From Candidatus Babeliales bacterium (lineage in GTDB: Bacteria > Babelota > Babeliae > Babelales > CAIQNR01), in NCBI GenBank assembly GCA_031972475.1, contig DALYEP010000001.1, forward strand, positions 325,147 to 389,146: a stretch of 64,000 nt of DNA. The letters run 5' to 3'. Position 1 is the stretch's first letter, and each line of letters begins with the position of its first letter. The notes below the pieces were generated by a model. That model made no database searches, was not told the DNA's origin, and worked only from the letters and a program-made list of their open reading frames with translations. The position numbers were made by a program, and so were the translations under genes. Shown one piece after another: positions 29,885-29,968 of this stretch.

Positions 29885-29968
29885 TCAAAAAGGGGGTGTT
29901 GGAGGAGTAAGTGAATAAATTACTGTAATAATCAGAAAGAAAAAAAATATTGAAACACTCTTTTTCAT
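29885..29968 (-). CDS. putative secreted peptide precursor MKKSVSIFFFFLIITVIYS-LTPPTPPF (27 aa)
   Basis: Not in ORF track; AAGAGGG RBS; n/h/c-region signal peptide then 8-aa Pro-rich tail; the GC-rich Pro codons stand out in AT-rich intergenic DNA. Confidence 0.7.
   Translation of the reverse strand: MKKSVSIFFFFLIITVIYSLTPPTPPF

Follow-up and report, generated by a model that had tools for sequence, protein, structure and literature searches.

We analyzed a stretch of 64,000 nt from contig DALYEP010000001.1 (hereafter the window; G+C ~30%) with regard to a micro-open reading frame (micro-ORF) and the regulator gene that diverges from it. The micro-ORF, 27 codons plus stop, lies on the minus strand at 29885..29968 (ATG 29968-29966, TGA 29887-29885), and its product, MKKSVSIFFFFLIITVIYSLTPPTPPF, consists of a Lys-Lys N-terminus, a hydrophobic segment of ~13-15 residues, and the tail LTPPTPPF. 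The tail codons ACT CCT CCA ACA CCC CCT occupy 29908-29891 (PPTPP, 29891..29905, minus strand), and one Pro-Pro (PP) pair is the family-invariant element. A Shine-Dalgarno (SD) sequence, AAGAGGG (29978-29972, minus), stands 3 nt ahead of the ATG, preceded by a sigma70-type promoter at 30009..30038 (minus; TTGACT at 30038-30033, a 17-18 nt spacer, and TACATT/CATTAT), whose form TTGAC[TC]-N17-TATAAT/TATACT is kept ahead of micro-ORFs in relatives. The regulator gene (30073..32823, plus strand, 916 amino acids [aa]) begins 104 nt from the micro-ORF ATG, so that the two share a divergent control region at 29969..30072. On the other side, nth, encoding endonuclease III (29153..29827, minus), starts 57 nt past the micro-ORF stop and has no SD. 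A sequence-only reading of this DNA had described the micro-ORF, its MKK start, hydrophobic stretch, I-Y-S before LTPPTPPF, SD, and distance to nth, all of which are found in the sequence; the Lys-rich start and hydrophobic core support a signal-peptide or anchor character of the N-terminus. The divergent regulator gene, the constant partner of the micro-ORF, had gone unremarked in that reading. Together, the micro-ORF and the regulator look like a previously unannotated peptide-regulator pair.

Judged by comparison with relatives, the micro-ORF is a genuine translated micro-gene under purifying selection. The nearest relative found, locus L001 (Nth 67% identical), carries MKKSVSLLFLFLIITIIYSFTPPTPPY at the same place, with 78% aa identity to the peptide of the window; no relative above 67% Nth identity, sought for a finer estimate of the ratio of nonsynonymous to synonymous substitution rates (dN/dS), occurred in any collection searched. 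Synonymous conservation in relatives had been proposed as a check by the sequence-only reading, and it was found: dN/dS (Nei-Gojobori, NG86) in the micro-ORF frame was 0.23 between the window and L001 and 0.26 between L097 and L101, low in this frame only, against ~0.9-2 in the other sense frames, and 4/6 TPPTPP codons differ synonymously at third positions in the DNA alignment of the window with L001. In the same alignment, conservation collapses directly past the micro-ORF stop. The sole antisense frame with a low ratio is broken by stops, and stops in the antisense frames rule out an antisense gene over the micro-ORF. An SD with ATG is present in 23/23 family members checked vs 21/35 ordinary window genes. 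The window contains 37 ORFs of 18-60 aa with SD and ATG, seven of them hydrophobic, and the micro-ORF is the only one that also has PP in its last seven residues. PP is under-represented in window proteins (9 pairs observed vs 16.3 expected; Pro 3.0%), in which CCU and CCA are the preferred Pro codons. An ORF of the same anatomy was found at 21/24 related nth loci vs 0/~73 outgroup nth loci (Fisher P = 2e-18), and gene callers report it in only 2 of ~30 nth-linked loci. The 104-nt divergent region is ~90% identical between the window and L001 (alignment judged by eye) despite a difference of 46% at synonymous sites within the micro-ORF (pS 0.46), which indicates dense regulatory information there. 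Start-to-start gaps between the micro-ORF and the regulator gene range from 61 to 183 nt (17 loci).

The loci compared came from a genome scan (L001-L016), a metagenome scan (L017-L096), and a retrieval of homologues of Nth and of the regulator. A scripted search collected the ORFs that end just ahead of nth, its signature being a hydrophobic product with PP in the last seven residues. Hydrophobic PP ORFs were confined to the Nth lineage closest to the window; elsewhere just two PP ORFs were found, neither of them hydrophobic. The ~30 family peptides, from genes of 25-50 codons, are alike in beginning with Lys-rich residues, continuing in a hydrophobic helix, and ending in a Pro-Pro tail (e.g., ...AILLIHPPNI, ...VLSFTPPWPW, ...VAVCPPWPW, ...LLGDGPPWN, ...LIGDAPPGW, ...FLMDAPPCN, ...ALSYWPPIL, and ...ASVFPPISSVFPPIS). 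PP is present in 29/30 listed peptides and never stands directly at the stop, being 1-3 residues away in 27/29, 5 in L005a/b, and 21 in L105b. The net charge ahead of the hydrophobic core is at least +1 in 26/30 members and the tail is neutral or acidic in 26/30, a distribution that fits the positive-inside rule; every member except L104b reaches a mean Kyte-Doolittle hydropathy of 2.5 or more over its best 11 residues. The TPP repeat emphasized by the sequence-only reading holds for the window and L001, to which it is private, and is not the conserved unit, the family-wide feature being a single Pro-Pro. PP is doubled in three lineages (TPPTPP, SVFPPISSVFPPIS, and TITPPQ...STPPQG), and tail duplications like TPPTPP arose independently in L104 and in L106/L107. 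The longer relatives L005, L013, and L007 have classical AXA-type signal-peptide ends, and by eye a Sec/signal peptidase I site fits in these three as well as in the window (IYS|L), L001, L099, L017, L018, and L019. No lipobox was seen by eye in the window peptide and no Cys is consistent across the family, and a lipoprotein was therefore rejected. None of the 10 peptides searched matched a Pfam or NCBIfam family, and Rfam returned three tRNAs over the window and nothing else. On this sequence evidence, an exported peptide is the best reading of the micro-ORF, and functional importance of its Pro-rich C-terminal tail is supported.

Across loci, the micro-ORF keeps company with the regulator gene and not with nth. 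Every nth-linked member has a regulator homologue of 878-916 aa divergently upstream. In L104 (1-3160), L105 (1-3298), and L108 (1-3320), the regulator is tandemly duplicated (914-916, 878, and 901-906 aa), and each second paralogue, in which the N-terminal transmembrane (TM) domain was read, has its own divergent PP micro-ORF: MKKNTMLVVKAKSQLNWPPED in L104 (285-350), which is not hydrophobic and is followed by an intrinsic terminator; MKNFKKIMFILIPALFAVALLRFPPWDDD... in L105 (403-543; ...LRFPPWDDD...), likewise followed by an intrinsic terminator; and MSTLLFQFFSVVFLIAVMMRFPPND in L108 (525-602), ending ...MMRFPPND. A search with an N-terminal fragment of the L108 second paralogue returned no homologues. 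In L005, the nth-side ORF is decayed, with an in-frame TGA and the end ...PDAPAA, and two tandem terminator-bounded signal-peptide genes of 47-49 aa (354-497 and 716-865) stand beside the regulator gene, their products ending ...VVSA|QGHQTQKKIEVPLGGGPPWIIGR (...GGGPPWIIGR). The most divergent regulator homologue looked up, L109 (32% identical), belongs to a module from which nth is absent; there, a micro-ORF encoding MLNIKKLSFVSLSLLLILQTLPPIA and preceded by an SD of its own diverges from the regulator gene at a distance of 104 nt, and thrS is next downstream. Across 154 kb of family loci and the 64-kb window, every signature ORF adjoins a regulator gene, and 377 kb of outgroup loci contain none. 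The paralogue-linked copies, L109, and the 21/24 vs 0/~73 distribution therefore identify the regulator plus the PP micro-ORF as the conserved unit, with nth the neighbor of one such unit, and a two-gene module in which the micro-ORF is always paired with a regulator gene is well supported by gene neighborhoods.

The regulator was characterized with Pfam, NCBIfam, AlphaFold, Foldseek, and an alignment to NtrC4. It is far better conserved between the window and L001 than Nth is (88% vs 67% identity). In an AlphaFold model built on 48 homologues (mean predicted local distance difference test score, pLDDT, 81), the order is ~8 membrane helices (residues 2-251), two alpha/beta sensory modules, an AAA+ domain, and a C-terminal helix-turn-helix (HTH); the sensory modules are PAS/GAF-like and split by a long coiled coil (~residues 271-568). 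The N-terminal ~8-helix bundle has no Pfam match, and W68, W93, and Y100 in it are nearly invariant. Pfam Sigma54_activat gives only a partial match, confined to the latter half of the sigma54-interaction domain. Aligned to NtrC4, the regulator has NIPENDIIS at Walker A (GESGTGKE), NQLFAISS at EKGAFTGA, and LFIKNI at Walker B (LFLDEV), and the degenerate Walker A/B and GAFTGA residues recur in the 48-sequence family consensus. The best structural matches include NtrX, PspF, and NtrC1 (Foldseek, E ~1e-8), and the C-terminal Fis-type HTH aligns to NtrC1. Among the marks of a sigma54 activator, the AAA+ fold and Fis-type HTH are thus retained, and Walker A, Walker B, and GAFTGA are not. Given these losses and the NtrX-like structural matches, the modeled protein is most likely a sigma54-independent, membrane-anchored one-component regulator with a catalytically dead AAA+ domain, in agreement with the sigma70-type promoters ahead of the micro-ORFs. 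All named sequences among its 51 homologues are from Babeliales or Dependentiae, and the regulator appears to be a lineage-specific family. In the libraries searched, the peptide and the regulator each constitute a new family.

We propose that the exported Pro-Pro peptide is the cognate partner or ligand of the divergent regulator, and estimate the probability of this, functional interaction included, at about one half. The sigma70-type promoter in the 104-nt region would transcribe the micro-ORF, and the strong SD would drive synthesis of the 27-aa pre-peptide. The Lys-rich N-terminus and hydrophobic segment would insert the peptide in the inner membrane in an N-in/C-out orientation, or the hydrophobic segment might be a cleavable signal peptide; either way LTPPTPPF would come to lie on the outer face. 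The membrane domain of the regulator could then bind or sense the exported PP tail or the peptide helix, and the regulator would act via its HTH on the shared intergenic region, which would close a peptide-regulator feedback or signaling loop. nth would ride on the peptide transcript and, having no SD of its own, may depend on ribosomes arriving from the micro-ORF. The micro-gene and the two-gene module are the well-supported parts of this scheme; topology or export, physical interaction, and the direction of regulation are what we infer from them.

Several observations weigh against this proposal. The I-Y-S cleavage site of the sequence-only reading is present in the window, but it is not conserved: L021 and L023 have Pro at +1, L004 and L097 fit a signal peptidase I site poorly by eye, and the -3/-1 rule is broken in several members, which lack small residues there. 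In L008 the regulator is present and a PP peptide is not recognizable; the L020 peptide reads VPG where PP would be expected. The nearness of PP to the stop in almost all members is a pattern also expected of a translational pause; such a PP-induced pause may well exist, and it is not needed to explain the conservation. The order xerC, regulator, micro-ORF, nth, thrS is very stable, and adjacency alone is therefore weak functional evidence, which leaves the argument from pairing to only four decoupling cases (L104, L105, L108, and L109).

A narrower version, rather unlikely in our estimate, has LTPPTPPF processed or displayed as a short Pro-Pro pheromone that is sensed by the 8-helix domain, with the regulator autoregulating the shared promoter region. 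If so, the module would be a one-component peptide-sensing circuit with a new receptor class in Dependentiae/Babeliales, and the duplicated modules of L104, L105, and L108 would be separate cognate channels. Should the peptide and the regulator interact in whatever manner, they would form a new peptide-regulator or sensor module whose parts are simple, namely the 27-aa peptide, a single regulator, and the control region of 104 nt. What is known of Dependentiae (TM6) comes almost solely from metagenomes and a few amoeba co-cultures, and to our knowledge almost nothing is known of gene regulation in them. Here, a conserved small gene that annotation usually misses is the constant companion of a lineage-specific membrane-bound regulator and is duplicated alongside it.

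The peptide might instead be a stand-alone small membrane protein with a role unrelated to its neighbors, held in place by frozen gene order in a reduced genome. It has every feature expected of a small membrane protein that spans the bilayer once, and the synteny from xerC to thrS is kept over Nth identities of 45-67%. We nevertheless regard this as unlikely, since a PP micro-ORF accompanies each duplicated regulator copy, the pair survives the loss of nth and local rearrangement in L109, and neither the 154 kb of family loci nor the window contains a PP micro-ORF off the regulator genes.

A cis-acting polyproline leader, in which an elongation factor P (EF-P)- or Pro-tRNA-dependent pause at PP tunes the translation or transcription of nth, as in CutF-cutO or SecM-secA, is doubtful. 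The nth product has Pfam HhH-GPD, HhH, and EndoIII Fe-S loop matches and its best PDB hits are endonuclease III. A leader would account for the position of PP 1-3 codons from the stop and never directly at it, for the duplication of PP in three lineages, and for the presence of PP in a proteome that avoids it. It would also suit an nth that has an SD-like sequence in only 8/23 loci (absent in 15/23) vs 21/35 window genes, with micro-ORF-nth spacers of mostly 47-82 nt that fold slightly more stably than shuffled sequences (mean z = -1.06 over 20 loci), and CutF is a precedent for a signal peptide with C-terminal prolines regulating a non-Sec gene (PMC9973294; bioRxiv 10.1101/2025.02.05.636593). 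The spacer of the window (29828..29884, minus, 57 nt) is, however, AU-rich with no predicted terminator and no significant structure; its z-score is -0.24 and that of L001 is -0.61 (z = -0.3 for the window region when folded singly). With a ribosome footprint placed on PP in a constrained partition function, the nth start became no more accessible (mean ddG +0.09 kcal/mol over 19 loci, improving by >1 kcal/mol in only 3/19), and a hairpin switch between micro-ORF and nth was rejected on these z-scores and the footprint test. The micro-ORF is retained in L109 without nth, and in L104, L105, and L005 an intrinsic terminator closes off each copy and leaves it without a downstream gene to regulate. 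Both the purifying selection and the positive-inside distribution of charge span the whole peptide. With 0-7 residues between it and PP in 24/29 members, the hydrophobic segment would not yet have left the exit tunnel and so could not act as a sensor of export. R/H/Q-[AG]-PP occurs in no member, and known arrest peptides lose their arrest as AAPP variants (PMC12992588). The EF-P-sensitive leader for nth that the sequence-only reading had offered as its alternative is thus largely contradicted: no switch is predicted, the Arg of RAPP-type motifs is missing, the ORF is kept where nth is absent, and paralogous copies stand beside regulator paralogues.

Other routes from the micro-ORF to nth were tried and rejected. 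The PP codons (CCUCC) as an anti-SD for nth fail because nth is mostly without an SD and CCU/CCA are simply the preferred Pro codons. A Rho/rut site was considered, the sequence past the stop being C-rich and G-poor in L018, L019, and L020; over 40 nt of the window spacer, however, there is a single C. A frameshift or read-through fusion to nth was rejected because, as read by eye at CCU UUU UGA, the +1 frame reaches a stop after ~11 codons, and the site is unconserved. efp was not found among the scanned window ORFs. The spacers barely align among relatives. A motif TA-N-CA-[TCG]-A-[AG]-[AT] (TAnCATAAAT) recurs in 12/20 micro-ORF-nth spacers vs 0.48 expected, 10-23 nt past the micro-ORF stop and mostly 42-66 nt ahead of nth, and is absent downstream of nth-less micro-ORFs. 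It reads TAGCATAAT in the window (29839-29831, minus), with the variants TACCATAAA and TAACATAGA, and is also present in L019, L018, L002, L003, L004, L023, L097, L101, L102, L017, and L020; it may serve nth as an internal -10 element or form a hairpin arm. In L097 (1466-1504), L101, L102 (1451-1504), and L103, a second tiny ORF of 8-17 codons overlaps the nth start (ATGA/TTGA), a hint that nth, lacking an SD, is translationally coupled; the counterpart in the window is only MYLA*, ending 6 nt before nth. nth is probably co-transcribed with the micro-ORF as a passenger.

Less probable still is an elongation pause for membrane targeting, by which the C-terminal PP slows the ribosome before termination so that the tunnel-held anchor reaches the membrane before release. 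Escherichia coli signal recognition particle can engage ribosomes with the hydrophobic segment still in the tunnel, and such a pause would suit peptides that have PP near their stop and, at 25-37 aa, would terminate before emerging. We consider it improbable, as PP is followed by 21 residues in L105b and by 5 in L005a/b, and the signal-peptide forms L005, L013, and L007 are long enough to need no pause. A type I toxin-like hydrophobic peptide, for which small size, hydrophobicity, and a -10-like motif readable by eye on the strand opposite the spacer motif might speak, or a chance ORF, is scarcely credible given a position stably syntenic across the whole lineage, the lack by eye of an antisense promoter conserved between the window and L001, and, for chance, the conservation, SD, and dN/dS that exclude it.

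Around the module, an ORF of 165 aa lies downstream of nth (28510-29007, minus); its product has a signal-like segment at the N-terminus and is unmatched in Pfam and NCBIfam. L001 has a homologue (53% identical) in the same place, followed there by three tandem ORFs of ~246 aa. mnmG, lgt, dnaG, a long rpoD of 760 aa, and a CorC/GldE-like gene follow on the same strand (19860-28320, minus). xerC/D and pbp2 are found past the regulator gene, and the window also holds genes for ATP synthase delta and alpha, a deoxynucleoside kinase, and adenylosuccinate synthetase. thrS, which adjoins the module in most relatives, is at 295-2016 in the window, 27 kb from it. The first 60 nt of L103 (1-60) contain an Illumina adapter-like sequence, ACACTCTTTCCCTACACGACGCTCTTCCGATCT, at the contig end, and the first ~70 nt of that contig are therefore an assembly artefact. 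The closest metagenome-assembled genomes (L001, L002, and L004) were deposited as 'uncultured Pseudomonadota', in conflict with homologous proteins (P0010 and P0140) named Candidatus Dependentiae or Babeliales; from the homologue names we take the lineage to be Candidatus Dependentiae/Babeliales.

Two groups of known systems are close in outline. CutF (DUF2946; Rhodobacter capsulatus cutFOG) likewise has an N-terminal export signal, PP within the last 15 residues, and a same-strand non-Sec gene <100 nt downstream, and a loose operational filter for CutF-like genes selects small ORFs by the signal, the PP position, and the nearby downstream gene (PMC9973294). Set at <150 aa and a same-strand gene <100 nt away, this filter retains the nth-linked members and drops the terminator-bounded paralogues. 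The differences are that ten peptides left DUF2946 unmatched at E up to 10, that the family has no CxxxC metal motif, that the ~90-aa exported sensing part of CutF is lacking (anchor-to-PP distance 0-7 residues), that no stem-loop to be opened by a stalled ribosome shields the downstream ribosome-binding site (the ddG and window z-score given above), and that conservation of the micro-ORF does not require the downstream gene (L109, L104, L105, and L005). RAPP-like or RQH peptides, ApdA, ApdP, and SecM share an N-terminal TM or signal segment, a C-terminal x-x-P-P conserved amid divergence, and a position upstream of another gene (PMC10987492; PMC12992588). Here, that gene is nth, thrS (L109), or nothing past a terminator, and not secA, secDF, or yidC. 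RAPP arrest is refractory to EF-P and depends on Arg (PMC12992588), and the motif conserved in that group is R/Q/H-[A/G]-P-P (or RAGP/RAPG), whereas 0/29 members have R/Q/H at -2 plus A/G at -1. The motifs seen include LTPP, IHPP, DGPP, DAPP, NWPP, and EFPP, with RFPP only in L105b and L108b, and the -2 residues are I, D, N, L, F, V, R (twice, in RFPP), G, and others. Monitoring substrates need >30 residues between export signal and arrest point (Fujiwara 2024, PMC10987492); in this family, the distance from signal to motif is below 30, at 0-7 residues in most members and 18-24 in L005a/b, L013, and L007. For screens of arrest peptides, the case is a caution that a stalling leader cannot be called from N-terminal hydrophobicity, PP near the C-terminus, and a gene downstream.

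The regulator resembles NtrX and VpsR in its AAA+ fold and Fis-type HTH with the GAFTGA loop missing, and differs from them in having an ~8-TM bundle and PAS/GAF-like modules rather than a receiver domain and in the additional loss of Walker A and B. MgrB, with PhoQ, is a small membrane protein that modulates a membrane sensor. By analogy, the micro-ORF product would be a single-pass peptide of <50 aa encoded near, and possibly controlled by, a sensor, with poor conservation beyond its TM character and a short motif; the partner here is a one-component regulator with 8 TM helices, a dead AAA+ domain, and an HTH, not a histidine kinase, and the conserved element is a predicted extracytoplasmic PP tail. 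SHP with Rgg and AgrD with AgrC are gene pairs of peptide pheromone and receptor, and may be likened to the module in that a very short hydrophobic precursor adjoins, and is often divergent from, the receptor gene, the C-terminal residues are the active part, and duplicated modules are cognate. In contrast to these, the regulator belongs neither to the RRNPP/TPR proteins nor to the histidine kinases, genes for processing or export were not identified, and the host is Gram-negative-type and probably obligately intracellular. In its logic, then, the micro-ORF module would seem most akin to sensor-modulating small membrane proteins and to peptide-receptor gene pairs.

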